DNA of 48,589 nt from positions 1 through 48,589 of the IMG/VR virus record IMGVR_UViG_3300025389_000029; one strand, written 5' to 3'. Shown piece by piece: positions 12,480-46,864 of this stretch (the stretch's first letter is position 1; the number at the start of each line of letters is the position of its first letter). A model generated the notes under the pieces. It had not been told where the DNA came from. It made no database searches and worked only from the letters and a program-made list of their open reading frames with translations. The DNA comes from a virus (Duplodnaviria; Caudoviricetes). The position numbers and the translations under genes were made by a program.

Positions 12480-12930
12480 CAAAAGATGAAAAACCTATTT
12501 TTTTTTGGGGGGAAATCGGAGTGGGGCACCCTCCCACAGCATGCCAAACCCAAGCCATGACCACTCACCACGCATGAGCTGCGAGCGTAGGCGTGTATCG
12601 TGCATAGAGTAACGTGTCCATAGCCCAATAGAGTATATACATTAGGTATATCCGGATATATATATAGTCTAGTAGTTCATAGTCCCTTACCCGATTAGGG
12701 TAGAGGGGAGAGAGTAGGTGATCTGTCCCCATTTATGACGAACAATTAGCCAGGTTAAATATATAAAACCCCTGTATAAATTTATACTTTTTTTTATATT
12801 CCTGTATATATATATATATAGTATATAAACTACATGATTCCTAAATTTAACTTACCTTATGTACCTATTAGATAAAAACTATCGCTCAATAGCTATTGAT
12901 TAAAATAAATGTGTATGAAATATGCAATAT
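12480..12930. other. AT-rich divergent intergenic region (candidate genome end / packaging / control region)
   Basis: No credible ORF. It has TA runs, the palindrome TATATCCGGATATA and a T9G6 tract, and separates the leftward late from the rightward early genes. Confidence 0.5.
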
Positions 12931-17103: not shown

Positions 17104-17296
17104 TACATATATTTATATTTTTTTAGTCACACTTTTTTTGTGTCTGTTATGCGTATGCGTGTTTCATTGCAAGGAGGACCCCGAAGAAAACGTGTTTAGG
17201 CGTAAAGACCTGGAATGTGACACTTGCGGTCAGATCAGCAATCTTACTAACGGTCTATGCGACTATTGCTCACGTTTTTATAAGGCTCACAAATGA
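17093..17296 (+). CDS. Small membrane-anchored zinc-finger-like protein
   Basis: N-terminal hydrophobic helix; CDTC...CDYC. Confidence 0.6.
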   Translation: MDFDTYIYIFLVTLFLCLLCVCVFHCKEDPEENVFRRKDLECDTCGQISNLTNGLCDYCSRFYKAHK

Positions 17297-17433
17297 ATAC
17301 TACTAATCCCAGTCTTTTAGACAAAACCTTTGTTTACATACCCTCCAATCGCACAAATGTTGCAGAAACATGGAAAAAATATGGGTATACGCCCCCAAGT
17401 GAACAAAAAGTAGTTGAAGAAGAAAAGAAATAA
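17293..17433 (+). CDS. 46-aa hypothetical protein (MNTTNPSLLDKTFVY...TNVAETWKKYG)
   Basis: Translated by hand; ATGA overlap with the upstream gene. Confidence 0.6.
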   Translation: MNTTNPSLLDKTFVYIPSNRTNVAETWKKYGYTPPSEQKVVEEEKK

Positions 17434-17442
17434 GAGTATTGT
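17414..17442 (+). promoter_or_regulatory. Sigma70-like promoter upstream of structured RNA
   Basis: TTGAAG, 17 nt, TATTGT. Confidence 0.55.
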
Positions 17443-17447
17443 TTGGG

Positions 17448-17581
17448 TTCTGGCGTGGAAACCGGAATAGGTTCAGGAATGTGTTTTAAAGATGCCCTTG
17501 ATGGGTGTTCTGTATGCTTACAAAGTGATCCTGAACCACTCTGTAAGTATTCCACAACAGAATACCTTTCAAGGGTTTTTT
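17448..17581 (+). ncRNA. C4-like antisense RNA with upstream a1/b1-type target sites
   Basis: 19-bp outer stem (17495-17513 with 17557-17575), inner stem with loop overlapping TCCTGAACC, bulge TTCCAC and a T6 tail. The complements GGTTCAGGA (17470-17478) and GTGGAA (17455-17460) lie just upstream. Confidence 0.65.
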
Positions 17582-17805
17582 GCGTTTGAAAGAAACAATC
17601 GGGGGCATAACCCACCCCTCGTTATGTAGATGCGACAGAAACGGATAAACGTAGAGAATGGGGCAAGAGGTCTAAACAGCCTGTGAAAAACCCAAGTCAG
17701 CAGCCAGGACTATCTTAGATAAACGAGAGCATCACCCTGTTTTTTAGGGAAAACCGTATATATGCGGGTGAGGTTTAATATTGTCTTAAGAACCGAGGCT
17801 CAGGC

Positions 17806-17988
17806 GTGTGGAACAAAAGTAAACCTTTTAGAAATAAATTTTTAAAAGAAAAGATAGTCACTGGAAAACTTTTCACCAGTGTCTGCCATTGCAAGACCGC
17901 ACCTTGGTTAGAATGTCCACATTCTTTCAAAGATGTTGAGTATGAGAAAGATATAGAAGAATATGTTTTATTTTTACCAAACATATAA
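17806..17988 (+). CDS. Possible small Cys/His protein
   Basis: 60 aa with CHC...W.ECPH; GTG start is uncertain. Confidence 0.4.
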   Translation: MWNKSKPFRNKFLKEKIVTGKLFTSVCHCKTAPWLECPHSFKDVEYEKDIEEYVLFLPNI

Positions 17989-17994
17989 ATATTA

Positions 17995-18023
17995 TTTGCA
18001 ATACTTATTATTATCTGTACAAT
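17995..18023 (+). promoter_or_regulatory. Sigma70-like promoter for recombination operon
   Basis: TTGCAA (17996-18001), 16 nt, TACAAT (18018-18023). Confidence 0.55.
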
Positions 18024-18065
18024 ACGAAGTGTAGTATCCTTTTTCCTAACAACAGGGGTAGCAAA

Positions 18066-18305
18066 ATGAACGACATAAAGTTCTGCAAAGACTGCAAACA
18101 TTTAGACAAAAAGTATCAAAACGCTGATTACGTCAACTTTGTTTACTGTATGCGTCCAGACGGGTTAAATCTCGTTTCTGGTGAGATCAAAGCAAGAGGC
18201 ATAGTTGCAGCAACAGAGCGCACATTGGACGCAACAGGCTGCGGTAAACACGCTCAATTTTTTGAGCCTATCCGCAACACTTCCAACATTCAATCGGAGT
18301 TTTAA
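18066..18305 (+). CDS. Small Cys-rich hypothetical protein
   Basis: FCKDCKH...C.RP...CG..A.FFEP; AGGGGT RBS. Confidence 0.7.
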   Translation: MNDIKFCKDCKHLDKKYQNADYVNFVYCMRPDGLNLVSGEIKARGIVAATERTLDATGCGKHAQFFEPIRNTSNIQSEF

Positions 18306-19205
18306 ATGAACCAGCAAGACGATTTTGCACCAGAGGTACGGAATTCTGCTTGGTGGAGTGGAGACACTCGCCTGGCAGCCAATGGTAAAGCTGTAGAAGC
18401 AATTCTGACCAAACAAGGGAAGATCACGCCACCTGACATATCTGACGTTGAAGCGGTCCAGATGGGTCATGTGATGCAACCTGTTATCGGAAGATTGTTT
18501 CAGACTAAACACCAAATGGAGTTGAAAGATGCGGATTACGCGCTTACGCACGCTAAGGAAAGCTGGTTACGTTCACACTTCGATTTCATTTCCGCAGATG
18601 GAAAAACGCTTGTCGAAGCCAAAAATTACAATGCAGCATATCGTAACAAGTTCGATCAAGAGCAAAACCGTGTCCCCGCGTCAGATTATGCACAGTGTCT
18701 ACATGAGGCTACTGTACATAACGTCACAGAAGTGTATCTTGCGGTTCTGTTTGGTGGACAAGAATTTCAAACCTTTCATTTCCGGTTTTCTGACCAAGAG
18801 AAAGAAGAATTCGTCAAAAAGAGTGCCGCGTTTTGGGGATATGTTCAGTCGAACACGACTCCTGCACCAGAAACGGTTGAGCAGACTAAATTAGTCTATG
18901 AAACAAGCAATTCTGACGTAATTACGGCAAATTCGCAGTTAGAGCAAGCTATAGCCGCTCTCAAACAGCGTAAAGAACAGATTAAGCAGTACGAGTTGGA
19001 TACAGAGCAGTTAGAAGTGTTTATACGCAATGCAATGGGCAATAGTGCTGAAATACGCTCTGTAGATGGTTCTACGCTTGCAACGTGGAAAAGCAGTAAA
19101 GCATCAGCACGTTTCGATGCAAAATTGTTTGAAAAAAGTATGCCGGACCTGTACAAGAAGTTTGTCGTTGAACAACAAGGCTCACGCCGCTTCCTAATTA
19201 AATGA
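18306..19205 (+). CDS. YqaJ-like viral recombination exonuclease
   Basis: EAVQMGH..QP.I, WLRSHFDF...LVEAKN (PD-D/ExK), Y.QC.H...V....YLAVLFGG, C-terminal coiled coil ending SRRFLIK. Confidence 0.85.
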   Translation: MNQQDDFAPEVRNSAWWSGDTRLAANGKAVEAILTKQGKITPPDISDVEAVQMGHVMQPVIGRLFQTKHQMELKDADYALTHAKESWLRSHFDFISADGKTLVEAKNYNAAYRNKFDQEQNRVPASDYAQCLHEATVHNVTEVYLAVLFGGQEFQTFHFRFSDQEKEEFVKKSAAFWGYVQSNTTPAPETVEQTKLVYETSNSDVITANSQLEQAIAALKQRKEQIKQYELDTEQLEVFIRNAMGNSAEIRSVDGSTLATWKSSKASARFDAKLFEKSMPDLYKKFVVEQQGSRRFLIK

Positions 19206-19215
19206 GGGGTTAATT

Positions 19216-20106
19216 ATGAGCAACATTATTCCGTTTCAAGAAATGAAAGGCATGGCTGAAGCTATTGCACAGTCTGGCTTATTCGGTATGAAAGATACTA
19301 ACAGCGTATTGGCACTGATGGCAGTGGCTCAAGCTGAAGGTTTGCATCCCGCTACAGCCGCAAGAGATTTTCACATTATTCAAGGTAGACCAGCACTTAA
19401 AGCAGATGCAATGCTTGCAAGGTTTCAGCAATCCGGTGGAAAAGTTCAATGGAGTAAGTACACAGATGAAACAGTTACAGGAGTCTTTACTCACCCTAAC
19501 GGGGGAGAGTTGGCAGTTACATGGACTATTGACCAAGCTAGAAATATTGGTCTCGTTAAACCTGGTTCTGGGTGGCAAAAGTTCCCTAGAGCAATGCTCA
19601 GAAGCCGTTGCATTAGTGAAGGAATTAGATCAGTTTATCCAGGAAGCGTCACGGGTTTCTACAGCCCTGAGGAAGTCTCTGATTTTGACGATAAGCCAAA
19701 GCAACGGGACATGGGGAAAGTAGAGATTGTTCCTGTTCCTGAAATAGCACCTGTAACGCAAATAACGGACGATGGTGAGGTTTTAGACGCTCCCGTGATT
19801 GCAGATATAGCCGACATTGAAAGCGACTCCTTGTATCCGCTTTATTTGCCAGATGGTACGATTTATTCAAGCCATGACACTAAAGATCAATGGTGCGTTG
19901 CTTACGTCAATATGACTACTAAAATCTTTAATTCTGAAAAACTTGATGCTGGCACTAAACAGCACAAGATCACAGCGTTCAGAACAGCGAATGAAAAGGT
20001 TCGCACAAGTTTAAGCAAGACCGATCAATTAGCATTAACTCAGATGGTTGCACAGCATAGAACTGCTGCAATTACTGTTCACGATTTAAAGAAATACGGA
20101 GAATAA
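19216..20106 (+). CDS. RecT/Bet-like single-strand annealing protein
   Basis: MA..IA.SGLF, HIIQGRP.L.AD.M, WTI..A...GL....W.K.P.AML..R...EG.R; adjacent to the YqaJ-like gene. Confidence 0.7.
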   Translation: MSNIIPFQEMKGMAEAIAQSGLFGMKDTNSVLALMAVAQAEGLHPATAARDFHIIQGRPALKADAMLARFQQSGGKVQWSKYTDETVTGVFTHPNGGELAVTWTIDQARNIGLVKPGSGWQKFPRAMLRSRCISEGIRSVYPGSVTGFYSPEEVSDFDDKPKQRDMGKVEIVPVPEIAPVTQITDDGEVLDAPVIADIADIESDSLYPLYLPDGTIYSSHDTKDQWCVAYVNMTTKIFNSEKLDAGTKQHKITAFRTANEKVRTSLSKTDQLALTQMVAQHRTAAITVHDLKKYGE

Positions 20107-20108
20107 GC

Positions 20109-20396
20109 ATGGCTTACGAAAACGACTTTAAAGTACCCGATGGCAAAGCATACTGTTTCGCAGTAAAAGAGCGTAAAAGCGAGTTTTCACCGCAATTCAA
20201 AGGCAGGATGATTCTGACAAAAGACTACAAAGCAGGAGATGAGATCAAACTTGCCGTGTGGTCACAAATGACTAAAACCGGAAATCCTTGGATCAAGATT
20301 GCTGAAGAAAACTGGGTTCCTAGCGGTACTTATGTGAATAAACAGCAATATCCAAAAGAAGTGAGCAACATTGATGACTCAGACTTGCCCTTCTGA
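20109..20396 (+). CDS. Putative ssDNA-binding protein
   Basis: K....P.FKG...I.LAVW core and the acidic tail DDSDLPF typical of SSB C-termini. Confidence 0.6.
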   Translation: MAYENDFKVPDGKAYCFAVKERKSEFSPQFKGRMILTKDYKAGDEIKLAVWSQMTKTGNPWIKIAEENWVPSGTYVNKQQYPKEVSNIDDSDLPF

Positions 20397-20434
20397 TCTG
20401 GAAAACCGATTTTTCTGGATGCGGGGAAGCGAAT

Positions 20435-20809
20435 ATGAAACACATACTACATTTACCATACCCTCCGAGTATCAATAACTACTGGATTGCTAGTGGAAAT
20501 AGACGCTTTGTGTCTAAACGTGGCAGAGACTTTAAGTTAGCGGTACAGGAATATGTTGCATCGCACCAAATGGAATCCTTTGGGGGTGGGATGGTGAATG
20601 TAGATATAGTTATTCGCCCCCGTGATGCAAGACTGATGGACATTGATAACTGTATCAAGCCAGTATTAGATGCTCTGCAAGACGCAGGAATGTTTGACAA
20701 TGACAAGCAAGTAAGCAGCGTGTCGTGTCATAGAGGTCTGGTTATGAAAGGTGGTGGCGGTTGCATCGTAGTCATCACTGAAGCAAAGGATGTACCCCCC
20801 GAATCGTAG
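20435..20809 (+). CDS. rusA: RusA-like Holliday junction resolvase
   Basis: LPYPPSINNYW and P.D.R..DIDN..K..LDAL..AG...NDKQV. Confidence 0.9.
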   Translation: MKHILHLPYPPSINNYWIASGNRRFVSKRGRDFKLAVQEYVASHQMESFGGGMVNVDIVIRPRDARLMDIDNCIKPVLDALQDAGMFDNDKQVSSVSCHRGLVMKGGGGCIVVITEAKDVPPES

Positions 20810-33366: not shown

Positions 33367-33740
33367 GCGCTTGGGGCAGACATATCAGGTGCGGGAGGTT
33401 CAACAGGCGCTTCTTCAACAGGAACCCAAGGCAGCGGTGCGGGCTGTGGTGTGGGAATCTTCTGAGCGTCGATCTGCGCTTGCACTTCAGCTTCCATCGA
33501 AGCTACACGGTCTGCACCAAGAGCGTCTTGTGTCCACAGAATAGCATCAGCTTGAGTAATCTGAGCGTAAGGCGTGAAATTAGATGCTTGAGCAGGAAGC
33601 AAATTAACGGAATACGTCACTGAACCTGTTGCTGATCCATCTTTACCGGAAATGGTGAAGTTAGACATAACAGCAGTGTTTGATTCTGGTGGCGGCATAA
33701 CGGACAAAGCGTTAATTGTCCATGTGTAAATAATAGCCAT
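33363..33740 (-). CDS. Fibre-associated hypothetical protein (possible fibre chaperone)
   Basis: YTWTI...FTPYAQ.T....W...LG...PLPW pattern, often found next to fibre genes. Confidence 0.65.
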   Translation of the reverse strand: MAIIYTWTINALSVMPPPESNTAVMSNFTISGKDGSATGSVTYSVNLLPAQASNFTPYAQITQADAILWTQDALGADRVASMEAEVQAQIDAQKIPTPQPAPLPWVPVEEAPVEPPAPDMSAPSA

Positions 33741-33950: not shown

Positions 33951-36176
33951 TTAACCTACTAATAATCTACGAGTATTCCCCGCAGCATCTTTGATTGTAA
34001 TATAGCCAGCTTGAACAACTACGCCAGCAGTGTATGTGCCATAACGCACCAAACCTGTTCCTTGACCTTGCAATTGAAGGTCTACGTTAGTATCTGAGCC
34101 TTGTGAAGAAATTACAACGGGATTGCCCGTTGCGCCGCCTGTGGCTTGAATATAATTTACTGCGGAGGCTGTAGGTGCAATTGAAAACTGCGCTGCACTA
34201 TTTCCGTAAAAGAAATGGTAGCCATTGCCCTTAGCAAGATATTTAAGGTTAATGTTTGCATCACTGCCGCTAGACGTTAAAGATGGTCCATCACCTGTAA
34301 CCCCGCCATACGTTTGCAAGTAATTTACCGCCGAGGCTGCCCCAGCAACGACAAATTGCGTAGCGTTATTGACATTAAAATAATGATTGGCATTACCTTT
34401 CGTGTAATAACTAACGCCTATGTTTGCATCTGATCCTTGGGGGTAAAAAAATGGAGTGCCGCCAGTTGTGTTCCCCGATACTTGAATGTAATTTACAGCG
34501 TTGGCAGTATGGCTTATATAAAACTGAAAATTACCAGCATTGCCAGTATTAAAAATATGACCGTATGTGCCCTTGGACAAATACTGTGAATGGATGTTGG
34601 CATCTGAACCAGCAGCTTGCAAGTACGGGCTTGACCCTGTAGCGCCACCAGTGATGTTGTAATAATTCACCGCACTGGCTAAAGGCGTGACACGCAGGGA
34701 TTCTGAGCCTACTGTACCGCCAATACTTGTTACACCAGATTGATTTATTGTTAAATAGTCAGATAATGTTCCCGATCCAGTTTGAATTGCGACACTAGAC
34801 CCGTTTGGTGCATAAATCCTTCCATAATCAATGCCATCAATAGTAAAAAGCAATCCTCTAGTGGCAACCGATTGAGAACTAGGAATGCGATTCCAAAAGT
34901 AAGTGGCGGCTAATATATTAGTATTAGAACTTATACCAGCTAAACTTAGTAGCATGGTAGAACCAACCGCCAAATTACCAGCCATGTAGTTAGCACCAGC
35001 ACCACTAGCGTACAAGTTGTAGTTGCTTGCGTTAGTGAGGTTAAGCTGACCAGAAAATGTTCCAGTCGTGGCGTTGATTGTGTCGCCGCCCTCTACCTTC
35101 TGCCATGTCGATCCGTTGAATACAGCCCAATCACCCACACCCCACAGAGCTTCGCCGTTCAGGTTGGTTGTACCCGCGACAGAGACGATGTAGTAATAGC
35201 CTGCAGTACCGACGCTCGATGTCAGCGTTGGGGTGTTTGTCGATGCATTCCATGTTCCCTGATACGCAACTGCACCAGACGCGACCGTCGTGACGCTGGT
35301 GATCTGACCCTGCGCGTTGACTGTGATTTGAGGGATCGATAATGCGCTGCCATAAGTGCCTGCAGATACGCCCGTGTTGGCGATTGATATCGTACCCGTC
35401 GTGGTGATTGGCCCACCTGTGAGCCCCGTTCCAGTAGCTACCGAGGTAACTCCAGCTCCTGTATATACAGACGTCCATACGCCGTTTGCGTATCCCTCAA
35501 AGTTGCCGATCTGCGAGTTGTAGCGCAGCGTTCCATTTGCTGGCAGCGCAGGTCTTGCTGCGGTGTTGCCGACAGGAACAACCATGCCGCCAGAACCTGA
35601 TATCACTGGGTTACTTGCTATCGCGACAACAGGGTTTCCGCCTGCGCCATTACCGTTGGTGATATCAATCTGGTTTGTCGTGCCAGTCAATGTCAGTGGG
35701 CTCAATGCCGAGCCGTTTATGCTTAGCAATCCAGTGCCTGATGCGTTGGCAAGCGCGAGCGCTAAGCCAGTCAATGCAAACGTGGGATCACCTGCTATGC
35801 CGTCACCGTTCGTGACAGAAATACCATTGCCAGATACAGTTAATGTGCGCGACGTGATGACGTTCGCAGCGGTCTTGGCAACGATGCCAGTGGCAGCGGA
35901 CTCCAGTGATCCGCTCGTGCCGTTCAACCGAATGGTATACGCACCCAGCGATCCGCCGTCAGTAATGCCAATACCTGTACCAGTAGAAAAGTATCGGCTA
36001 TTTGGCAGCGTGGACTGTAGACCAACAGTCAAGAATGTCTGCGTTTGAGATGGGCTTTGCGTGATGGCAGAGACAGTCGTGCGAACCGTCAAACCATTCT
36101 GAACAATAGGTACTAGCTCATCGCCAGAGATAGCGTTGAGAGCTGGTAGTAATTCAGAGATTCTAATATCTGCCAT
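33951..36176 (-). CDS. Tail fibre / receptor-binding protein (phage B N-terminus plus shared C-terminus)
   Basis: 741 aa: MAD.RISELL start, P.G.TA.RP....G.LRYN....FEGY..G.W module, four C-terminal AVNY...GSD.N repeats. Confidence 0.8.
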   Translation of the reverse strand: MADIRISELLPALNAISGDELVPIVQNGLTVRTTVSAITQSPSQTQTFLTVGLQSTLPNSRYFSTGTGIGITDGGSLGAYTIRLNGTSGSLESAATGIVAKTAANVITSRTLTVSGNGISVTNGDGIAGDPTFALTGLALALANASGTGLLSINGSALSPLTLTGTTNQIDITNGNGAGGNPVVAIASNPVISGSGGMVVPVGNTAARPALPANGTLRYNSQIGNFEGYANGVWTSVYTGAGVTSVATGTGLTGGPITTTGTISIANTGVSAGTYGSALSIPQITVNAQGQITSVTTVASGAVAYQGTWNASTNTPTLTSSVGTAGYYYIVSVAGTTNLNGEALWGVGDWAVFNGSTWQKVEGGDTINATTGTFSGQLNLTNASNYNLYASGAGANYMAGNLAVGSTMLLSLAGISSNTNILAATYFWNRIPSSQSVATRGLLFTIDGIDYGRIYAPNGSSVAIQTGSGTLSDYLTINQSGVTSIGGTVGSESLRVTPLASAVNYYNITGGATGSSPYLQAAGSDANIHSQYLSKGTYGHIFNTGNAGNFQFYISHTANAVNYIQVSGNTTGGTPFFYPQGSDANIGVSYYTKGNANHYFNVNNATQFVVAGAASAVNYLQTYGGVTGDGPSLTSSGSDANINLKYLAKGNGYHFFYGNSAAQFSIAPTASAVNYIQATGGATGNPVVISSQGSDTNVDLQLQGQGTGLVRYGTYTAGVVVQAGYITIKDAAGNTRRLLVG
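34826..35048 (+). repeat. Direct repeat copy 2 (tail-fibre internal segment)
   Basis: Aligned base by base with 1-223 at an offset of 34825. Confidence 0.97.
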
Positions 36177-36177
36177 G

Positions 36178-36507
36178 TCAAGGACTCAAGTTGTTGAGGT
36201 TGCCATTATTTGGCGTATTACCTTGCTCAGGAGATATTGGGCTATTTCCTATTGTCTCTGTGATTATTGCATCGTGATTCTCAGCAACGCTCAAATCTGG
36301 GCGAGGGAATCTGATCGATATTTTTTCTGGCTGTCTTGGCGGCAACCGATACGGATCGAACTGGTCAGAGCAACTTTCACTGCATACTTTAAGCGCCGGA
36401 ATGTTGCCATCAGGACGCATATCAGAATATGCACGCTTCATTTTACACCGATCGCAGATGAAAATGCTAAGCGTACTATTCCCTAGTGTGTCCAGAAATC
36501 TAGCCAT
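36178..36507 (-). CDS. Cys-containing tail-associated protein
   Basis: ICDRC...VCSESC.D..DPYRLP....I..RFPRPD. Confidence 0.7.
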   Translation of the reverse strand: MARFLDTLGNSTLSIFICDRCKMKRAYSDMRPDGNIPALKVCSESCSDQFDPYRLPPRQPEKISIRFPRPDLSVAENHDAIITETIGNSPISPEQGNTPNNGNLNNLSP

Positions 36508-37063
36508 ACATCACCCGATTGCTTTTAATTGCATTTTCCTTGGAAGGCAATATTTGCAAATTCCAAGGCACATGCAATCCAGACACAAGTTTACCTCGCA
36601 AAGGAATAATATGGTCAACTTCATACCATTCGCCAATCAATTTTGATAACGCACGCGCTTCAGCATACACATTCTCAATTTGTGTGCTGTGCGCATCAGA
36701 CAACCATGCTGGTGTTCTCATCAAGCGAGATGCACGCCGTTTTGCCTGTTTGGCAGCAATTTTGTCTGGATTATTTTTTATGTACTCACGCTCACGAGCA
36801 CGAATTTCGTCACGATGCGTATCTCTATATCTACGCAAGATGGAGGCAAATTTTTGTGGATTTTTTGACCGCCATATTTTGATTGTAGAAAAAATGGCAT
36901 CAGAATTCTTGGAACGGTAAGCCGAATCATCCATTTGCTTGCATGCAACGCAATTGCGGCTAGAGACCATCCTCTCAGCAAAATGACCGCGAGCGCATGG
37001 TTTGCCAGTAAAGTATCTAGTCAATGCTTGCGCCTTAGCATCCGCATGAGAAAGAATGTTCAC
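36500..37063 (-). CDS. HNH endonuclease with N-terminal zinc finger
   Basis: YFTGKPC..GH...R....C..C, RTP.W, EVDHIIPL.G..VSGLHVPWNLQ.L...EN..KSN. Confidence 0.88.
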   Translation of the reverse strand: MNILSHADAKAQALTRYFTGKPCARGHFAERMVSSRNCVACKQMDDSAYRSKNSDAIFSTIKIWRSKNPQKFASILRRYRDTHRDEIRAREREYIKNNPDKIAAKQAKRRASRLMRTPAWLSDAHSTQIENVYAEARALSKLIGEWYEVDHIIPLRGKLVSGLHVPWNLQILPSKENAIKSNRVMYG

Positions 37064-37065
37064 GA

Positions 37066-38136
37066 TTACCTCGTGTAATAAGAAATGTTGCTTGCGAAGT
37101 AGATAGGCGACTTATCGCGCTCTTCTGCTTCAGCCAGCGCAAAATGCTTTTCCCATTGCTGCTCAAGGTATGTAATGCGAGCAGCGTCGACACCGGGCAA
37201 CTCCATCGACATCTGATGAGCCAAACCGTTCTGGATCGCCAAGTACCAGCGTTGAGGAATCTCGAGCTGACCACTTAGTTGACCAACGTCCTGAATGTAA
37301 CGGCTGATCCACACTTCAAGTTGAGGCTGGATACTGTTCGGGACGGGCCACAGCTTCATGTTCGGCTGGTTAATCGTGCGATCAAACCAAAACTGAAGCG
37401 GTCTGTACGCCGTGAACGAGCGATTAGGCAGGTTGGAGTAATCATCACGGTTCATGCGTGCCATCGGGATCGCCATTGGGCTTGTGCCGAACACTACTTG
37501 ATAGAAACCCATGTTGATACCAGCGCTCTGCTTAATACGCCAGAGTGGAGCTGTTACCGATGGGTCAAGCTCGTAATAAATCCATGTGTTTGCTGTCCAC
37601 GTCACAGCGCCCGGTGATTTCACCGACACCCATGTCGCGCCATCAAATGAATACTGCAGATCGACCGTCACAGAACCAGTCACAGCAGGCAAAATGCCAA
37701 TCGTGGTGATATAGACAGGGTTATTTGTGCCGTTTGTAATGCCGATTGCGCCCGTATTGGTCGTCAATTGGCATATGGAGTTACCTACCCCGTCAAATGC
37801 GTTAGCAGTATCGCCAGAGGTGCTGTAATAGCCTGTATTGATGGCTGTGAGCGTGCGAAAGTTGGCATTCAGAATGTCATTTGAGCCAACAGGCAAATAA
37901 TATTGATATTGATCTGGCTGCAGACCGATGATCGTGCGCTCAATACACCAGTAATTGATGCCGTAATTGGTCAGCGACGACAGCAGATAGAACAGGCTGT
38001 CCTTCGCAGCCGAGACTTGCTCGACCGTCAGCTCTTCCGCGAGCTTACCTGCGCGACGAGCACCATGATCGATCAACTGCTGAACGGAGATTACTGTTTG
38101 TCCTACCGTTCCAGAAGTATTCAAGCCTGTCGTCAT
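37066..38136 (-). CDS. Head-tail adaptor / tail tubular protein of phage B
   Basis: 356 aa with N.GIN.W, R.DY.NLPN....RP.QFW.DR, LWPVP, P.RW..AI..GLA. Confidence 0.65.
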   Translation of the reverse strand: MTTGLNTSGTVGQTVISVQQLIDHGARRAGKLAEELTVEQVSAAKDSLFYLLSSLTNYGINYWCIERTIIGLQPDQYQYYLPVGSNDILNANFRTLTAINTGYYSTSGDTANAFDGVGNSICQLTTNTGAIGITNGTNNPVYITTIGILPAVTGSVTVDLQYSFDGATWVSVKSPGAVTWTANTWIYYELDPSVTAPLWRIKQSAGINMGFYQVVFGTSPMAIPMARMNRDDYSNLPNRSFTAYRPLQFWFDRTINQPNMKLWPVPNSIQPQLEVWISRYIQDVGQLSGQLEIPQRWYLAIQNGLAHQMSMELPGVDAARITYLEQQWEKHFALAEAEERDKSPIYFASNISYYTR

Positions 38137-38661
38137 TTACCACCCCGGGCATTTCCATCGTTTCAGTGAGGCTTTTGCACGAGGTGCATCGCCACTTGCG
38201 TTCTTGACTACGCCGCTCATCCTTGCACAGAATGAATCCTTACGCTTGCCGCCCTGTGGTTGCGGCGCTTTCAGGTGGCTTCCTGTTTTAGCATTATATG
38301 CCTTCCGACCAGCTTCTGTCATCCCAGCGCCTTGCTTTGTCGAGAGCTTTTCACCGCGACCAACAGCGAGTGACACGCCGCCTTTCTTCATTTTCACAGT
38401 CTTTGCAGACTCTTTGAATGCTGCAGCGGTTGGCGCACCTTTGCTTCCTGCCTTGCGCATATGCTCACCAGAGCCATGCTTAATGCGCTCCTGCTTGGCG
38501 TGGATGTTGGCATAAAGCCCACCTTCCTTAAACTTCTCGCCAGTGTCAGCAGATGCAAACTCCTTGCCCACCTTTTGAGGGATGCCCACTTTCTTGGCAA
38601 AAGCCTTGGAGTGAGCAACCCCCTCCATCAATCGATGTTGAGAAGGGGATTTGCTTGGCAT
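38137..38661 (-). CDS. Highly basic multi-module protein
   Basis: MPSKS..Q.RLM, GLYANIHAK..RI and R..SFCARM....SL.RW.C modules separated by xxGG linkers. Confidence 0.7.
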   Translation of the reverse strand: MPSKSPSQHRLMEGVAHSKAFAKKVGIPQKVGKEFASADTGEKFKEGGLYANIHAKQERIKHGSGEHMRKAGSKGAPTAAAFKESAKTVKMKKGGVSLAVGRGEKLSTKQGAGMTEAGRKAYNAKTGSHLKAPQPQGGKRKDSFCARMSGVVKNASGDAPRAKASLKRWKCPGW

Positions 38662-38662
38662 G

Positions 38663-41317
38663 TTAAGCCTGCGACTCTTGCCAGCTCAGACGAGCCAGAA
38701 TGGTTGAGTTACCACCGCTGACGTTGTTGGCAACGACGTACAGCACATCAGGGCCGTCTGGGAACTGACCGACGTTACTCGTAGGCACAGTGTTGTTCAA
38801 TCCGCCACCCAAGATCGCGTTACCGATACCAGAAATTGCGGTCAAGTCCAGTGTAGTCTGACCAGTGCTATTTGTGAACGCAGCACCGATTGATTCGCCA
38901 CCCGTGAATGTTGCAGCAGTGTTTGTCTGCGTTGCAATTTGAACGATTGAGCTTGTCACAGTGTTGTTCTGTGTTGGCGACTGGAACGAACCCCATGTAG
39001 GTGTACCAGTTGTGTAACCGTTCAGAATCAACTGAATCAGGAACGTGCCAGTAGTCACCACGCCAAGTTCGCGCAATTGCAACTGGAGGCGGTTGATGAC
39101 TTCCTTGTTGCCCAAAATGCCGACCTGACCGTTATCCACCGAAGGAGCAAGTCGAATTGCCAGAATTGGCACGGCAGTACCGTTTGCAACTGTCACAGCA
39201 GACTGTGTACCGTAGTTATAAATCAACGATACGTCGTTGCTGAATCCACCGTCCATAACTACTGACGAACCCCAGTGCGAGATTACCGCGACTGAATCTG
39301 GTGGAGCATATTCAACAGAAACGGGAGGGATGGCGTTTGTCGATGGGAATACTGCAGTGAATGCAGATGCCGCTCCGCCGCCTGTCACGCCGCGAGTCAC
39401 GCCAGTGAACTGGTCGTAAGCCAAGCCTGATTGAGCTGCAGTCGTAATTCCAGAGTATGTTGCATATTCAACCGCACCACCGTTTGCTGCGGCTGTGAGC
39501 TTGATCGTTCCACCTGCTGGGTTAAACCCTGCTGCACTCACTACTGGGATGGTTGTAGCACCGCTTGTAATCGTTGAGTACAGTGATGTGATTGAAGCCT
39601 GACCGCTCGACTCATAGCGCGATGGTAGGTTACCAGAGCGCATGTAGGCGTTGTATTGAATGTTGTTGCTCTGGAATGAATACACATATGCAATAGCGCC
39701 TTGCGTCGTGCGCAAACCGAAGCGTGCAACACCAGCACCGTACCACGAGTAGTCGATGAACCACATCTGGTTTTTGGTGAGGTCGAGGTTGTAGCCAGAA
39801 GGCCCTGTCCCGTCGAGCGGGTCATACCATTGCGATTGTGGCACTCGCGTGTCGATTGTCTTTGATACCAGCGCGTTCGCAATTGTCTGACCGCGATACT
39901 CTGGGCTGATGTACAAAGATGTATCGCTTGCAATGCTCAGCACGCGATATGACTGACCACGGATCACGATGTAATCGCCGGGGGCGAGCTGGTTCGTGAA
40001 CACCGTACCAGTACCAGTAACCGCACCGCTACCTTGCGTGACAGACACAGTGCCGCTCAACTGGTTGATCGAGTTGCGCCATACCGCATAAAGCGTCTGA
40101 CCATCAAACTGGAAAAACAAACCGTTCTGCGAATCAAAGAATCCGATCTTGTTGCTCGAGCCATACCATGAGTATGGGCTCACGGTGACAGGTAATCCAA
40201 TCGACGTAAGTGCTGGGCTGGCAGTCGGGACAATAGTGTTTGCAGTGACATATGTCAGCGTTGTGGCTGACGGTACTGTGGCAATCTTAAAGATGCCGTT
40301 GTATGCAGGAACAACTGCATCGCTTACTTTGATGTAAGACCCTACCGTCATGTTGTGCGCCCAGCGGGTCGTCACAGTGACAGTGGTGTTAGATAAGTTG
40401 TTAGTGACTGACGAAACAAACAAGCGTGGTTTCAGGATCGAGCCTGTCGAAAACTGAATACCTTTACCTGATTGATAGCGGAAGTAACGACGTGTCTGAC
40501 GAACCATCAATTGGTTTGGTACAGCAGCGCCAGCAGTGAAGTTTACCGAACCGTCATAGGCGCGGGTCTCAACATATCCAGAAGGACGCGCATAGACGTT
40601 GTTTTGTGCATTGGCGGTCGTTGTGACTGTACCTGATGCGCCTGTTGTAGCGATAGTGAATTGATTAGCGGTTGGAACAGTTGCAACAACCCAAGCACCA
40701 TTGACACCTGTGCCGCCTGTCGTGTTTGCAATATACACATACGATCCAGCAGACAAGCCGTGAGGCGCGACCGTGTTAACCGTGATTGCTGTACCGCTAG
40801 TCGTGATGGCGGTGGTGCTTGCAGTTGCTACAGCGATACCAGCGTTGGTGAAGAAGAAACCGGGGTACACATAAGTCGCTGTGGCATTGTATTGGTTGCC
40901 TGATGCGACTACGCTTGTGGTGACAATCGTAAACGATGTGCCGCCTGTCGACGCTGTGACATACCACCAGCCGTTGGCGTTGGTGTCCAGAGCGTCTTCA
41001 ATAAAAACAGGAGTTCCGACTGCCACGGTTGCCGTGGTGGAAACTACAACTGTTGTTGTGCCGTTACCCGTAATTGCGGTGACAGGCACAGGACTTGTCT
41101 GAAAGTAGTAGCAGCTCTGGCGGTTGTTCTGGAGCGACAATTGCTCCCACTTGCTTGGCTGCTGACCGTATTCAAAGTCAGTATCAATCAGTGATTGAGG
41201 GGTTGAAACGCGCAACTTATCAACAGGATCGTATGCAGCAGACCGTTGCGAGGTCTGAATGCGCATCTGGTTATCCGTGTTGGAGGTTGGCCCTGTGTAG
41301 GAAACGATTTGACCCAT
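38663..41317 (-). CDS. Large virion structural protein with repeated beta modules
   Basis: 884 aa; KLRVS.PQSLIDTDFEYG.Q..KWE N-terminus; repeated T...H....G..V......NG...V..V.....F modules; ends W.E.QA. Confidence 0.65.
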   Translation of the reverse strand: MGQIVSYTGPTSNTDNQMRIQTSQRSAAYDPVDKLRVSTPQSLIDTDFEYGQQPSKWEQLSLQNNRQSCYYFQTSPVPVTAITGNGTTTVVVSTTATVAVGTPVFIEDALDTNANGWWYVTASTGGTSFTIVTTSVVASGNQYNATATYVYPGFFFTNAGIAVATASTTAITTSGTAITVNTVAPHGLSAGSYVYIANTTGGTGVNGAWVVATVPTANQFTIATTGASGTVTTTANAQNNVYARPSGYVETRAYDGSVNFTAGAAVPNQLMVRQTRRYFRYQSGKGIQFSTGSILKPRLFVSSVTNNLSNTTVTVTTRWAHNMTVGSYIKVSDAVVPAYNGIFKIATVPSATTLTYVTANTIVPTASPALTSIGLPVTVSPYSWYGSSNKIGFFDSQNGLFFQFDGQTLYAVWRNSINQLSGTVSVTQGSGAVTGTGTVFTNQLAPGDYIVIRGQSYRVLSIASDTSLYISPEYRGQTIANALVSKTIDTRVPQSQWYDPLDGTGPSGYNLDLTKNQMWFIDYSWYGAGVARFGLRTTQGAIAYVYSFQSNNIQYNAYMRSGNLPSRYESSGQASITSLYSTITSGATTIPVVSAAGFNPAGGTIKLTAAANGGAVEYATYSGITTAAQSGLAYDQFTGVTRGVTGGGAASAFTAVFPSTNAIPPVSVEYAPPDSVAVISHWGSSVVMDGGFSNDVSLIYNYGTQSAVTVANGTAVPILAIRLAPSVDNGQVGILGNKEVINRLQLQLRELGVVTTGTFLIQLILNGYTTGTPTWGSFQSPTQNNTVTSSIVQIATQTNTAATFTGGESIGAAFTNSTGQTTLDLTAISGIGNAILGGGLNNTVPTSNVGQFPDGPDVLYVVANNVSGGNSTILARLSWQESQA

Positions 41318-41347
41318 GTCTCACCTATTGAATTCGAGAATTTTCGC

Positions 41348-41372
41348 AAAACAGGGGGCGATTACACCCCCC
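41348..41372 (-). terminator. Rho-independent terminator
   Basis: Minus strand GGGGGTG-TAAT-CGCCCCC-TGTTTT directly after the 41381 stop. Confidence 0.7.
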
Positions 41373-41380
41373 GCTTGACT

Positions 41381-42154
41381 TTACCAGCTACCGCCTTTCT
41401 TACCAGCTTTGAAGCCGTCACCACCCTTGCAAGCCATCGCAACATGACCGCCAGTCTTGTAACCAGCAGGAGCTTGTTTGATGCTTTTTGTGCCGAAGGG
41501 TTTGGTAGGCATTTTGCCGTTGCCATGCATCATCGTATTTTCATACTTTGCTACAGAGCCACCCTTTGCATAACCGCGACCTTCGAGCTTGCCAGTCTTG
41601 GTATTGAAACCCTTAACTTGCTTGGCTTCTACGACTTTGGTGTTTGCATACTTTGCAATTTTTCCACCACTCTTGTAGCCGACGCCTTCAATGCCACCCG
41701 TCACGCGCTTGGGGTTTGCGCGAGTAGCTTCAATGCCGCCGAGAAGACCACCGGGAACATCGTTCTCAACCTTGCCGCCAACTCTCAAACCCTTGTGAGC
41801 TTTGCTTGCTGGCTTGCCTTCGTGAGATTTCAGTTCTTTCTTGATGCCTTTGATCTCGCGCTCTTCTTTGGCTTCCATTGATTTGCTCTCGACTTCGCCG
41901 CCTTTCTTGCGTGCCATAGCTTGAGCAGGCATGCCCGGTGCTGGACGCACTGGAGCACGCGATGCCATCATTGAAGCGCCACGAGGACGTGCAGCCGCCA
42001 AGCGTGCAGCCAGCTCAGGAGCAGCGCCCATTGCTGGAGCAGCCGATGGCAATGCGCCACCGATTGCTTTCTTGGCAACACCACCTTTTTTCAGTTTGAG
42101 TTCAACTGAAGGCTCGGTGGTTTCCATCTTTGGCATTGGTTTAAATTGACCCAT
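41381..42154 (-). CDS. Basic Lys/Gly-rich protein with many xxGG motifs (candidate core protein)
   Basis: 257 aa with LKKGG, RKKGG, LRVGG, YKSGG, YAKGG, YKTGG; AGGAG RBS. Confidence 0.7.
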   Translation of the reverse strand: MGQFKPMPKMETTEPSVELKLKKGGVAKKAIGGALPSAAPAMGAAPELAARLAAARPRGASMMASRAPVRPAPGMPAQAMARKKGGEVESKSMEAKEEREIKGIKKELKSHEGKPASKAHKGLRVGGKVENDVPGGLLGGIEATRANPKRVTGGIEGVGYKSGGKIAKYANTKVVEAKQVKGFNTKTGKLEGRGYAKGGSVAKYENTMMHGNGKMPTKPFGTKSIKQAPAGYKTGGHVAMACKGGDGFKAGKKGGSW

Positions 42155-42167
42155 GACGAGCTCCTAA

Positions 42168-43139
42168 TTAGGCTTGTGTGACGCCAAGAGCGCCAGTGCG
42201 GGTTGCATTTGGGCCAATCGCAATCGCTGGCAACATGATGCCAACAACAAGGCGCTTGATACCGTCAGGTGCGCTAGATGGGCTGAATGTGCCGCGAACG
42301 TCGCCTGTGGTAGTGGTAGCGGTAGTTTGCACAGCAGCAGCGAATGTACCGCTGTCGATTGCAAAACCGTTGTTCCAACCAACGTGGCAGATGTAAGCGC
42401 CATCATTCACGCGAACTGGAAAACCCAGCAACTGAGTTGTGCCGACCGTGACAGCGGTTGTCGAAGCGCCTGCACCAGAAATTGAAGTGATCTGGTAGAA
42501 CGCTTTTTTACCGTTTGTCGTGGCTGCAGCAACCGACGTGATTACTTCGCTCATAGCCTGACCATAGTAGTCAAAGCCAGTGATCGTGTAAGCGCGTGCT
42601 GTACCGCCAGTGACCAGCGAGACTGAAACTACGCGTGGGCAATCAAGCTGAATGACAGTAGTTCCATCAGCGCGGACAACAGATTTTGTTCCTGCGCCTG
42701 CTGTCAGGGTCAGGTTACCTGCGGCTGCAGGAGTCTGAGTTGCGGCGATGTTTGATGTCGACGAAGTTTGTGGCACGACGTCCCAGACGTAGATGCGACC
42801 AAGAGGACCAACACCCAAGTCCATTGGAGCTGGATCACCAAGGTAAGCGTTACCAGAAGCAGTAATGGTGATAGCACCAGTTGCCGAGGATGATGCGCTT
42901 ACAGTGTATGTACCAACACCGCCAGTACCTGTACCGAATGCAGTGATATACGAGCCTGCGGTTACGCCAGTACCTGAAACGTATTGACCGAGCACGATAG
43001 GATCGCCAGACAGCATTGCTGTGACGGTCATTGTGGTTGTTGTGATCGAACCTGCGAACGTGGCAGTAATCGATGATGGCGCAATACCCATAAAGGTTTG
43101 CGCGTTACCTAAGAATAGGTCGTCTGAAAATTGAGGCAT
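42168..43139 (-). CDS. Putative virion structural/decoration protein
   Basis: 323 aa Thr/Ala/Gly-rich, directly after the major capsid gene. Confidence 0.65.
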
Positions 43140-43170
43140 GTCGTCTGCTCCATGAAAAGTATGACGAATT

Positions 43171-43198
43171 AAAAAAGGGGGTAGGTTTCCCCACCCCC
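43171..43198 (-). terminator. Rho-independent terminator after major capsid gene
   Basis: Minus strand GGGGGTGGG-GAAA-CCTACCCCC-TTTTTT. Confidence 0.85.
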
Positions 43199-43204
43199 GT
43201 TTGC

Positions 43205-44119
43205 TTACACTCCGGGCGTACCGAACATGGCGCGTGGATCAGTCCACGACAACCAGTAACGCTCAGTTGCTTTGTAGCGCATCGAGTCTGTCTCGAAGTC
43301 GCCTTCCATAGTCTTCTCGAGACCACGGCGCATCATCAACTTCATGCCTTCTGGTGCGTCGGTTTGTACCCACCAGTTGGTTGCTGAAGTCAAACGGCTT
43401 ATAACAGCAGCGCCTTCAGGCATCAGACCAATCGACTTGACTGGGTTGATGTCGTTGTTGGCAGTGCCAGTACGCAGAACCGATTTCAGCAGAACTTCGG
43501 CTTGGAACACGTTACCGGGGGCAACGACCAGCTTCAGTGGCTGAAGACGAATCTTCTTACCGTTGTTATCCACAGCCGAACGAACCTGAATCAACATTTG
43601 CTCAAGCGATGTCTGCGAAAGGTTCGCAGCAGTAGCCAGCAAGTTGCTGAATGTGCCGTTGACGATTGGATGGTTTGATGCGCTCAACTGTACGCCGTCA
43701 CCGCCCGTGTAGGAACTGTTGAATGCGTTGTTGAGGACGTTTGCTGCCAGCGTCTCTTTGGTCTCAACCAGTGACTGAGCCAAGTGCTTTGCATAAACCT
43801 GACCGATACGAATGTGATCGCCGTCTTCGACCAGAACTTTCGTCAGAGCGAAAGCCAGACCGTAGACCTTGTACACATAGCGCTGCAGGAACAGAACGCC
43901 GCCCTGCTGATACGATACAGGAGTACCGTCAGGCAGTTCAGGTGCTGCGCCGAAGCCGTACAGTACGGGTTCTTCGTGGTAGTTACGGGGAATGCCCATC
44001 TGCTCACGGAAAACCTGTGACCATTCATCTGAGCGCAGATCATAGACTCCGTCGAAACATTCATTGAGAATTGGCTCAACGATGCTTCGGAAGTCGGTAC
44101 TTCTCATTGGAGCTGCCAT
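43205..44119 (-). CDS. Major capsid protein of phage B
   Basis: 304 aa with EE....GFG.AP...G....Y, ETKE..AANVLN.AF, GGDG..L....HP, LS..SLE, P.KL.V.P, DFET...RYKA.ERY..W.DPR; followed by a terminator. Confidence 0.88.
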
Positions 44120-44133
44120 TTTGTCATCTCCCC

Positions 44134-44721
44134 TTAGATAGCGTTAACGGTTGAAATGAACTGTGGCTTGCTGACCTGTACGCGAACTACGACGTATGGA
44201 TCACCCCAGTTGTTGCCCGGAATCGGAGCAAGGTCAACAATACGGAATTGACCAGCAGAACCTGAACCGACCAGTGAGGCGGAGAGGGTCATCTGTGACA
44301 AACCTGTAGTTGTCGAACCAGCAGTGAAGTTGCTCAGGTTGGCTTCGTTACCGATAGCTGTTTGAGCCATAGTGCCGTCTGTCTGGATTTCATAAACGAT
44401 CTGTTGATCATTGTAGAAATAAGCGACGATACTACCTGCGATTGCAGTGGTGGAGGCGGGCCAATAATTCGACACGCGACGACGACCAGTTGTATCTGTC
44501 CACTCTACGCCAGCAAAGCTGCCAGAGACGAGACCAGAGTTTGTGGTTGTATCCAGAACTGGAAGAATGACACCAGCGTTTGGCGAATACTGGACAGCCT
44601 GACCTTTCAGGATGTTCGTAGCATAGCCAGAGGTAATTCCGTTGGCAAGCGCCTGAGCACGATCCAAGCCAGTTGGATGAAATGCAGGTCGCAGACCAAA
44701 AGGTGCAGAGGTTGCACTCAT
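44134..44721 (-). CDS. Putative minor capsid / cement protein
   Basis: 195 aa with APFGLRP, G.F.GVE.TD and GST.TG.S; directly upstream of the capsid gene; AGGAG RBS. Confidence 0.65.
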   Translation of the reverse strand: MSATSAPFGLRPAFHPTGLDRAQALANGITSGYATNILKGQAVQYSPNAGVILPVLDTTTNSGLVSGSFAGVEWTDTTGRRRVSNYWPASTTAIAGSIVAYFYNDQQIVYEIQTDGTMAQTAIGNEANLSNFTAGSTTTGLSQMTLSASLVGSGSAGQFRIVDLAPIPGNNWGDPYVVVRVQVSKPQFISTVNAI

Positions 44722-44756
44722 AGGATGCTCCTAAAAATAGTTGAAGGACAATTTTG

Positions 44757-44875
44757 TTTTCGGCTTTATTCAAAGCATCAGGCAAAATCACCTTGGAACG
44801 TGATTTTTAGGGTACTAATTCTGTTGATCACCCGCCTTGTACAAAGCAGGTGATCTTTCGAGCATTATGCACTCA
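44757..44875 (-). promoter_or_regulatory. Multi-hairpin leader upstream of capsid operon
   Basis: Minus-strand stems GATCACCTGCTT/AGGCGGGTGATC, AAAATCAC/GTGATTTT and GCTTT/AAAGC. Confidence 0.5.
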
Positions 44876-44895
44876 ATAAATAAATAAAACAACCA

Positions 44896-45432
44896 TTATT
44901 CAAAGAATGGCGCAGGCGCATCTTTCTCGCCATCGATCAGGTCACCTTCGGCGCGAATCAAGCTCTTGCCATTGCTGTCGCGAGCTGAATTCAGCAGTTG
45001 TTCTTGCTGAACGCGAATCTTGCCTGCCTCTTCCATTGGTTGATAGTGATGCTTCTCAGCCATGTAATCCTGATAGATATCCATCGGGAGTTTGTAGAGG
45101 ATCATCTCGTTGCAGGAGATGTGACCGACGTGCTCACCTTCCTTGACCTTGAGGTGCTCCATACCCTCGAGCTCATCGCACAACACCGCCTGATAACCCA
45201 AGCGCATGCGGCTGTGGATGGTGTCGTACTGGTTGGTGGTCGATAACCAGCAGTAATGCCAGTTTGGATCGCCTACTACCTTCGGCAGCGCTTCCTGAGT
45301 GAACTCTGACTGGAAGCGACGACGACGGGTTGGTGCTGATGCCAGTGCATCATCAGCCGAGGCGCGTGATTTGTCTACTGCTGCGCGGTTTTGACGACCT
45401 GCGCCACTGTTCTTACGGATACGGTCATCCAT
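44896..45432 (-). CDS. Hypothetical head-module protein
   Basis: 178 aa with LP.....WHYCWL.....D....R.RLGY..V and EM.L.K.P. Confidence 0.7.
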   Translation of the reverse strand: MDDRIRKNSGAGRQNRAAVDKSRASADDALASAPTRRRRFQSEFTQEALPKVVGDPNWHYCWLSTTNQYDTIHSRMRLGYQAVLCDELEGMEHLKVKEGEHVGHISCNEMILYKLPMDIYQDYMAEKHHYQPMEEAGKIRVQQEQLLNSARDSNGKSLIRAEGDLIDGEKDAPAPFFE

Positions 45433-45434
45433 GA

Positions 45435-46421: not shown

Positions 46422-46864
46422 GCTGTTTCCTTAATTAAACATTCAGAAACAATTTTTTTGGATGACATTGTTGAAACAATAGCTTGCGCCATAATCAATA
46501 ATTGATCATCATTCATAATGTTTCTAAATGCATTTACGCACATACAAACAAGTCGCACGTTCCCATGAACATAATCTTTTTCATTATCTATTCTGTCCAC
46601 AGAAATAGACGTTGGCGTAGTTTTTCCGCCAGCCCAAGTCATACGAACTCCAGATAATGCGCAACAACCTTCTTGCTGATCGTAAATTTCCATTAAATAT
46701 TCAATGTCAATTTCTACGTTTCTACGCCTTTTCGCTTGTTGCAAAATTGCATTAAAACTTTGGGTTGGCGTTTTTTTATGACGTGCCTTCTGTTTTGCTA
46801 ATTGCTCTGCTTTGTTACGTTGAAACCAATCAGCGTGGTATTGTTGCTTTTTGAGTTTGTCCAT
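46418..46864 (-). CDS. HNH-type homing endonuclease
   Basis: Q.G.CALSG, S.DRID....Y..GNV.LVC...N; AT-rich island in a GC-rich operon. Confidence 0.8.
   Translation of the reverse strand: MDKLKKQQYHADWFQRNKAEQLAKQKARHKKTPTQSFNAILQQAKRRRNVEIDIEYLMEIYDQQEGCCALSGVRMTWAGGKTTPTSISVDRIDNEKDYVHGNVRLVCMCVNAFRNIMNDDQLLIMAQAIVSTMSSKKIVSECLIKETA

Follow-up and report, generated by a model that had tools for sequence, protein, structure and literature searches.

A predicted structured RNA ahead of the recombination genes of aquatic tailed phages and its possible part in the start of replication

Introduction

The plasmid ColE1, a class B theta replicon, makes an RNA II of about 555 nt. Phage T4 has the R-loop origins ori(uvsY) and ori(34), where a promoter-dependent RNA is followed by recombination-dependent replication; T4 encodes a replisome of its own and is not known to depend on a conserved RNA fold. 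Phage SPP1 has the gene set YqaJ, RecT, SSB and RusA and also encodes an origin-binding protein and a helicase.

Extracts from the published record add further cases. In ColE1, a DnaA box beside the n'-pas can serve for DnaB loading (PMC3640518), and in P4 the CI/seqA attenuation gates the replication genes (PMC4825925). The plasmid-borne motifs ARRPOF, GEBRO and PAGEV (Weinberg et al. 2017) are described in the available excerpt as structured, 223-349 nt long and located in replication regions, with ARRPOF lying within a region that is sufficient for Rep-independent replication (PMC5737381). According to a section of a viral-genome survey, viruses without a helicase usually carry initiators, integrases or recombination proteins, and some cases are left unexplained (PMC4889955). 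How small dsDNA phages without a recognisable replication gene begin DNA copying is the question addressed here.

We analysed a stretch of 48,589 nt from a tailed phage (IMG/VR record IMGVR_UViG_3300025389_000029), called the window in the following. A first-pass annotation had proposed that a tract behind a C4-like RNA is a candidate RNA-primed origin in a genome that lacks a replication protein, under antisense control as in ColE1.

Results

Genome context and replication genes

Positions 1-34825 of the window are a podophage-like genome with matches to an SU10-type portal and adaptor in family-profile scans. Its closure at 34.8 kb, already proposed before, rests on a direct repeat of 223 nt with 98% identity (1-223 and 34826-35048). 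Through this repeat a structural region is attached (34826-48589), and because this rest of the contig is GC-richer and has its own, second head-protein gene, the contig is probably an assembly chimera of two phages.

Small early genes lead up to the tract, which is followed by the promoter of the recombination operon (Table 1). Pfam/PHROG-type scans of the window ORFs confirmed YqaJ, RecT and RusA. The 95-aa ORF at 20109 had no match to a named family, and the label SSB-like stands only through its cluster representative, which matches SSB. Just upstream of YqaJ, a small Cys-rich (CxxC) ORF at 18066-18305 is kept in many relatives; no family was found for it, and it is a candidate for an accessory replication or host-takeover factor.

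Table 1. Positions of the features in the window
Feature	Position	Strand	Remark
Putative sigma-70 promoter of the leader	17414..17442	+	-35 TTGAAG 17414-19, 17-nt spacer, -10 TATTGT 17437-42
Leader 5' segments, seqA/a1-b1-like targets	17455..17478	+	complementarity to downstream hairpin
Long irregular hairpin and U-tract, C4/CI-like attenuator or terminator (putative)	17495..17581	+	optional module
Conserved structured element (predicted ncRNA), single copy	17600..17775	+	model R1, 253 loci
P1 hairpin, 4 bp, loop end ACCCA; predicted pseudoknot partner of 3' GGGT	17602..17618	+
P2 hairpin, 4 outer and 3 inner bp around an internal loop	17619..17644	+	covariation
Box 1, GATAAACG	17644..17651	+	43-48 nt from 5' end, fixed
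Variable P3 domain	17652..17717	+	box spacing ~21 to >120 nt across the family
Box 2, GATAAACGA	17718..17726	+
3' domain: A/T-looped hairpins and G-rich end motif CGGGTGAGGTT	17727..17775	+
Recombination-operon promoter, not part of the element	17995..18023	+	promoter scan
YqaJ exonuclease, RecT-like annealase, SSB-like gene, RusA	18306..20809	+	sole DNA-transaction core of the clade

Profile scans of the 64 ORFs of the window gave no polymerase, helicase, primase or initiator. The clade of the window was then sampled with 12 complete or near-complete genomes, consisting of the window, two GenBank entries and nine IMG/VR records. Six-frame searches with the HTH_36 family alignment, DnaB, primase, O-like protein, IstB/DnaC, DnaA_C and DUF1376 were negative in 12 of 12 genomes, and in each search the positive-control phage genomes or control genomes were matched. 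Pfam/PHROG scans of the ORF-cluster representatives of the clade, which covered 75 clusters of at least 80 aa and one shorter core cluster out of 110 new ones, also showed no polymerase. The earlier remark that no such gene is recognisable was borne out. An HTH_36 initiator in W02 was rejected when the weak match (E 0.003) vanished with the family alignment. Two small core ORFs matched only unnamed viral clusters in protein-atlas look-ups, and a small cryptic initiator may be among the 80-aa core ORFs. A partial beta-clamp-like gene (Pfam DNA_pol3_beta_2) was seen in the early regions of initiator-less phages, at L076:1699-2343 and in 5 related loci. The early regions at L030:2425-4773 and L081:2726-5118 contain an amidoligase-like gene and an unannotated 340-aa gene.

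The GC skew gave no origin signal at the element. The cumulative skew turns at ~13 kb together with the gene direction, and the skew at fourfold sites does not change sign at the element and is unrelated to the direction in which the element points. AT-rich palindromic repeats of the ATAGACTATAG type occur at 12636-12671 of the window and in L040 and L077, either in the slot upstream of YqaJ or at the early/late divergence point.

The tract contains a conserved and covarying element

When the tract of the window was folded alone, the signal was modest (+ strand, z = -1.70, 10 of 200 shuffles as good; - strand, z = +1.74), and GATAAACG occurred 3 times in the window against 1.29 expected (10 of 100 shuffles). 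It is the comparison with relatives that lifts the signal above chance. Starting from 580 YqaJ relatives in IMG/VR, 80 loci were kept, and in many of them GATAAACG was found on one strand or the other at a distance of 0.6-2.1 kb before YqaJ. In pattern scans the resulting profile was matched by 101 of 114 new viral loci and by 0 of 120 loci from prokaryote genomes, and a metagenome scan added 120 further copies. From the total of 254 copies in 121 clusters, L408 was dropped as a chance match, so that the element is found at 253 phage loci in 120 clusters at 90% identity; this number includes L410, which is apparently the window's own contig. The covariance model R1 has one strong match in the window (65.5 bits, with the window being part of the training set of the model), and each of the 14 positive records among 35 searched contained one copy.

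From 5' to 3' the family shows a CG, P1, P2, box 1, P3, box 2, the A/T-looped hairpins and the G-rich end motif within 120-248 nt (median 182), and both GAUAAAC boxes are near-invariant. In the window the repeated GATAAACG was found where it had been reported, at 17644 and 17718, whereas the GGGG/CCCC stem, at 17602-17605/17615-17618, is shifted by one base from the numbers given earlier. The strongest evidence for a fold comes from 55 distinct 5' domains, in which 98.2% of 605 cells were paired and 10 of 11 pairs had two-sided changes. None of 500 shuffles was as good in pairing and covariation, the slid controls were paired to 38-61%, and RNAalifold, used unaided, gave the identical 11 pairs. 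P1 had partly been selected for by the parser, but P2 had not; P2 showed two-sided changes in 7 of 7 pairs, with 100% and 98.8% of the cells paired. When a search named only the boxes and the 3' motif, P1 was recovered in 54 of 58 distinct matches, and the remaining four consisted of two with P1 beyond the extracted sequence and two chance matches.

The base helix of P3 was supported, with 0 of 500 partner swaps as good. For the 3' domain, the three alternative stems listed by the first-pass annotation (CCCT/AGGG, CCGTA/TGCGG and TCACCC/GGGTGA) are all present in the window, but among the relatives the P4 helix that would close the domain lacks support, with 138 of 500 partner swaps scoring equally well. 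Of 109 parsed copies, 108 have a P1 loop that could pair with the 3' motif, and just 2 compensatory types occur. Most searches fixed the P1 loop, and the near-invariant pairing suggests a pseudoknot but does not prove it.

As had been noticed, the tract lacks a credible ORF, and no frame is open across its first 180 nt. A coding function of the element was rejected, with no open frame in the window or in the cultivated phage MEP301 and with a box spacing that is uniform modulo 3 (42/34/32, no tie to codon phase). Some open frame was present in 50 of 109 relatives compared to 24% in shuffles, scattered over all six frames.

We then asked whether the element had been catalogued. Rfam, used at the gathering cut-off and at E <= 10, had no real match for the tract, and the upstream hairpin and the C4 models gave none either. 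By blastn against phage and plasmid collections, the tract found chance or DnaA-box-only matches except for L006, and the plasmid collections contained no real copy of the element. No carrier of the RNA was listed among sequencing runs, which counts neither for nor against it. A pattern scan of GTDB, with 49 of 64 parts covered, gave 0 of 120 matches that fit the profile. The literature searches found no description, and the supplement of Fremin et al. 2023 (PMC10690425) was free of the motif in 6 files; a fragment of the element may be among the 8,495 unnamed candidates of that study, whose alignments may be in 3 other files. From the sequence comparisons, we regard the element as a real, conserved, uncatalogued and strongly covarying RNA candidate from aquatic phages.

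Promoter and upstream hairpin

In 39 of 111 clusters, a sigma-70 -10 box is separated from the 5' CG by 4-10 nt, compared to 21 of 666 control offsets. GNRA tetraloops were counted 34 times in the sense and 6 times in the antisense strand. The element has the same orientation as YqaJ in 10 loci and the opposite one in 17. The element reads as a predicted promoter-driven, stand-alone non-coding RNA gene.

Upstream of the element, the hairpin of the window folds with z = -4.56 (0 of 200 shuffles). Its bulge at 17550-55 is complementary to 17455-60 and its loop at 17529-37 to 17470-78 in the leader. The leader promoter in the window is weak (8 of 12 consensus positions, read from the sequence and below the scan threshold); relatives have stronger ones at the matching place. 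A T-tract directly upstream of the element is present in 42 of 111 clusters including the window, and wherever loci were folded a long hairpin was seen to end in this tract. In the relatives, unpaired hairpin segments beat shuffles by at least 2 nt in 17 of 59 cases for upstream targets and in 1 of 59 for downstream targets, the window's own hairpin not being parsed by this script. A second downstream target (seqC, a2/b2) is therefore not systematic, and a partial target copy at 17797-17814 of the window may be due to chance. As the layout is that of P4 CI/seqA, the term C4-like holds as an analogy and not as an Rfam membership.

An RNA I-type control found no support. No - strand promoter was detected by the promoter scan within 17200-18150 of the window, and when the hairpins of the relatives were compared to shuffles the leader had no systematic antisense target inside the element. 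The attenuator is optional, because in 39 of 111 clusters the element has a promoter immediately before it.

The slot upstream of YqaJ is exchanged

Among 83 YqaJ-anchored loci, the RNA was present in 27, tandem DnaA boxes in 12 and both in none. The others comprised 16 loci with different modules (types D, E, F and a G-run tract) and 28 unclassified loci; 22 of these 28 have less than 1.5 kb of upstream DNA, and the six with at least 1.6 kb hold no classified module. The exclusion between the RNA and the DnaA clusters had a Fisher p of 0.0045 on 34 tree rows, which are not independent. On the 34-row YqaJ tree the slot labels change 14 times (minimum 6), showing that the slot has been exchanged repeatedly. 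In the 12 clade genomes it contained the RNA in 8, other structured elements in 3 and a DnaA-box cluster in 1.

The DnaA-type slot consists of an AT-rich tract (72-84% AT, compared to 56-64% for the loci) that is followed by 2-4 tandem perfect DnaA boxes with 11-12 nt spacing. Examples were found 350-1600 nt upstream of YqaJ (L038, L050, L052, L053, L057, L064, L072, L076 and L081), and L613, L642 and L681 are further oriC-like slots. In the complete genome of L057 (G006), no replication gene could be detected. When the scan was started from the DnaA boxes, it yielded 120 loci, 16 of them in the window's clade (3 on contigs already sampled), and the RNA was present in 0 of these 16; the profile control was 113 of 119. 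The cluster was upstream of YqaJ in all 16, with YqaJ 350-2500 nt downstream in 15 and 1077 nt in the sixteenth, L650.

DnaA boxes also occur at the RNA itself. Perfect boxes within 75 nt after box 2 were found in 9 of 108 clusters compared to 1.2 expected, and tandem clusters at the 253 RNA loci were inside the element in 12, 425-550 nt downstream in 4 and upstream in 0. Some relatives have tandem boxes inserted into the 3' domain, and some of the boxes there are inverted. A conserved AT-rich unwinding tract behind the RNA was not observed in the family comparison. The DnaA clusters could instead regulate a nearby early promoter or titrate DnaA.

Several other modules were observed in the slot. 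The type D element follows a similar hairpin and T-tract (L005:32315-32522(-), L009:4392-4600, L018:343-550, L045:7158-7400, L601 and L603); the loop of its 5' hairpin covaries by eye with a downstream partner in three forms, and most copies have GATAA boxes. Further unrelated structured elements stand behind a long hairpin, namely type E (L015, L019, L020, L023), type F (L070, L071, L080) and L012. In L054, L055, L060, L073 and L075 the slot, here 500-800 nt upstream of YqaJ, is filled by a G-run/C-run tract with AT-rich DNA behind it, which we take to resemble the origin part of O-like genes. Dense arrays of up to about ten DnaA boxes after a C-run were seen in L604, L609, L619, L626, L629, L633, L635, L655 and L662, divergent from a distant homologue of the unnamed gene c130 that precedes a terminase gene. 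The RNA is at the matching place in 14 RNA-bearing loci. These arrays may be origins or DnaA sinks.

Other clades and the cultivated phage MEP301

Outside the window's clade, the RNA was found next to replication genes. In 133 loci, an O-like HTH_36 gene was present in 17 (13 directly downstream, starting at the 3' motif of the RNA, and 4 on the opposite strand), a primase-helicase in 7, within 0.5-0.8 kb downstream, and DUF1376 in 2. The mutual exclusivity with initiator genes that the first-pass annotation had suggested testing therefore fails outside the window's clade. The tight linkage of the RNA to replication genes in three arrangements nevertheless points to replication.

The O-like protein led us to the cultivated OM43 phage MEP301. 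It has an unannotated copy of the element at 33433-33613 (L326) that starts 7 nt after TTGCAA-17-TATAAT and is antisense to the neighbouring operon. Gp55 (34057-34662), annotated as hypothetical, is an HTH_36 O-like protein and is convergent with the element. In the portion of the MEP301 paper that we consulted it is concluded only that the phage depends on the host, and the words non-coding, intergenic and origin are absent from its main text (PMC8024684). HTVC010P-type phages mostly encode a DnaA DNA-binding domain, as stated in a passage of PMC8477408. Since MEP301 is cultivated with its host and carries the RNA, the question is directly testable.

Discussion

Given that no initiator is detectable in the clade and that the RNA is swapped for an oriC look-alike, the RNA likely helps host proteins to start replication. 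We give a probability of about 0.45 to the reading that the element is the core of an RNA-dependent replication origin run by host proteins. It is supported by the covarying structure, the placement of the promoter, the single copy, the slot exchange and the DnaA boxes at the RNA. It is weakened by the RNA lying beside replication genes elsewhere, the silent skew, the lack of a conserved AT-rich tract, of a plasmid copy and of a real match among the 120 prokaryote-genome loci, an RNA that is far shorter than RNA II, the near-invariant predicted pseudoknot, the unsupported P4 and the six long loci without a classified module. A strict ColE1-type priming by the RNA of the element is rather unlikely though worth keeping in mind.

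If the element is an origin, the host RNA polymerase would transcribe it, either straight from a promoter or after reading through the C4/CI-like attenuator, and a short RNA released from the attenuator would damp further read-through. The transcript would fold into P1-P2-box-P3-box, with the P1 loop paired to the G-rich 3' end. This end would likely stay on the template as an R-loop and open the duplex, and RNase H would trim the hybrid RNA into a primer for Pol I. Host DnaB would then be loaded on the displaced strand via PriA, or via DnaA where boxes are inserted, and YqaJ, RecT, SSB and RusA would drive an amplification that is recombination-dependent or of the rolling-circle type. Where a clade has an O-like protein or a primase-helicase, these proteins would use an origin that the RNA has opened or activated.

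A broader proposal is possible but doubtful. A large group of aquatic tailed phages would do without initiation proteins and carry a plug-in origin cassette, which would be an oriC mimic used by host DnaA in some and a folded RNA, of one of several unrelated kinds, in others. The RNA described here would then be a new class of compact initiator, with the GAUAAAC boxes recruiting a host replication protein, the 3' end priming or opening the DNA and the C4/CI-like attenuator setting the copy number.

The main rival, rather unlikely in our view, is a phage ncRNA that acts in trans, is bound to a host protein via the two GAUAAAC boxes and serves in host takeover, in anti-defence or in sequestering a replication or transcription factor; its position in the slot would reflect a recombination hot spot for early modules. 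A stand-alone RNA with its own promoter, in either orientation, with a predicted pseudoknotted fold, two invariant single-stranded boxes and GNRA loops would suit such a role, as would its maintenance in clades with their own replication genes. A trans-acting RNA leaves unexplained why one module per slot is exchanged with AT-rich/DnaA-box arrays, why DnaA boxes lie inside or just downstream of the RNA and how the clade starts its replication. Also, inspection by eye of the sequence behind the 3' motif showed no consistent terminator.

An improbable alternative is a cis-regulatory leader, acting as a translational switch or a put-like antiterminator for downstream replication or recombination genes. 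The 13 HTH_36 genes that start at the 3' motif, where GAGG reads as a Shine-Dalgarno sequence, count against the origin reading, because a cis-leader predicts such a placement; the 7 primase-helicase genes behind the RNA agree with it as well. Against a leader, a same-strand ORF of at least 60 aa right behind the element is absent in 77 of 96 cases, the element points against the neighbouring operon in the 17 YqaJ-anchored loci and in MEP301, and the YqaJ operon has its own promoter.

Next in rank and likewise improbable, the fold could act as a single-stranded DNA priming signal of the ssi/pas or ABC-primosome kind that is exposed by transcription or recombination, with the RNA being incidental. 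Because the strand that an R-loop displaces is identical in sequence, covariation cannot separate RNA from ssDNA, a point made in an excerpt of PMC5737381, and the partly inverted DnaA boxes in the 3' domain would fit. What speaks for RNA is that the start expected from the promoter falls on the 5' end of P1, that the GNRA loops are biased to the sense strand and that P2 is closed by a frequent U-G pair.

It is very improbable that the element has no link to replication and is a selfish or mobile RNA or one involved in packaging: the patchy spread over several unrelated phage clades and the terminase genes near the element in some of them would fit, but the element is single copy, has no linked transposase or reverse transcriptase among the scanned neighbours and is far from the terminase in the window's clade.

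Our analysis contributes a concrete slot, a new structured RNA family in this slot and a natural control in the form of the DnaA-box version. If the origin reading is true, initiation run by RNA is no longer confined to ColE1 plasmids but reaches phages that are common in freshwater and the sea, and compact protein-free replicons would be at hand. If it is wrong, a strongly covarying, uncatalogued phage ncRNA is still left.

How does the locus compare to the known systems? With SPP1 the window shares the set of YqaJ, RecT, SSB and RusA, but an origin-binding protein and a helicase were not detected in its clade. ARRPOF, GEBRO and PAGEV are moderately long structured motifs like the element, which differs from them in having no Rfam model match and no plasmid location. 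P4 CI and P1 C4 have a similar long upstream hairpin, with a bulge and loop complementary to a segment just 5' of it and followed by a U-tract, and would similarly gate a replication-linked transcript. They differ in that the hairpin here has neither an Rfam match nor a systematic downstream target (seqC/a2-b2), and in that the gated item is a non-coding element and not ORFs.

The ColE1-type origins resemble our locus in the absence of a Rep protein, none being detectable in the window's clade in contrast to other RNA-bearing clades, in a structured RNA with a G-rich 3' part, predicted here to be promoter-driven, in a possible antisense brake and, for some copies, in DnaA boxes within or behind the RNA. 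In contrast to ColE1, the element has no Rfam or plasmid similarity and no homology to RNA I or RNA II, measures 120-250 nt, resides in lytic-type tailed phages rather than plasmids and is kept beside initiator genes in other clades. No overlapping RNA I was found in the window, and the control, if any, would be exerted via the upstream C4/CI-like hairpin. With the R-loop origins of T4 the locus would share a promoter-dependent RNA at a phage origin and the recombination-driven amplification proposed here, but no helicase, primase or polymerase is detectable in the window's clade. If the proposal is right, the element would work in analogy to a ColE1 or a T4 R-loop origin while being a member of neither family.
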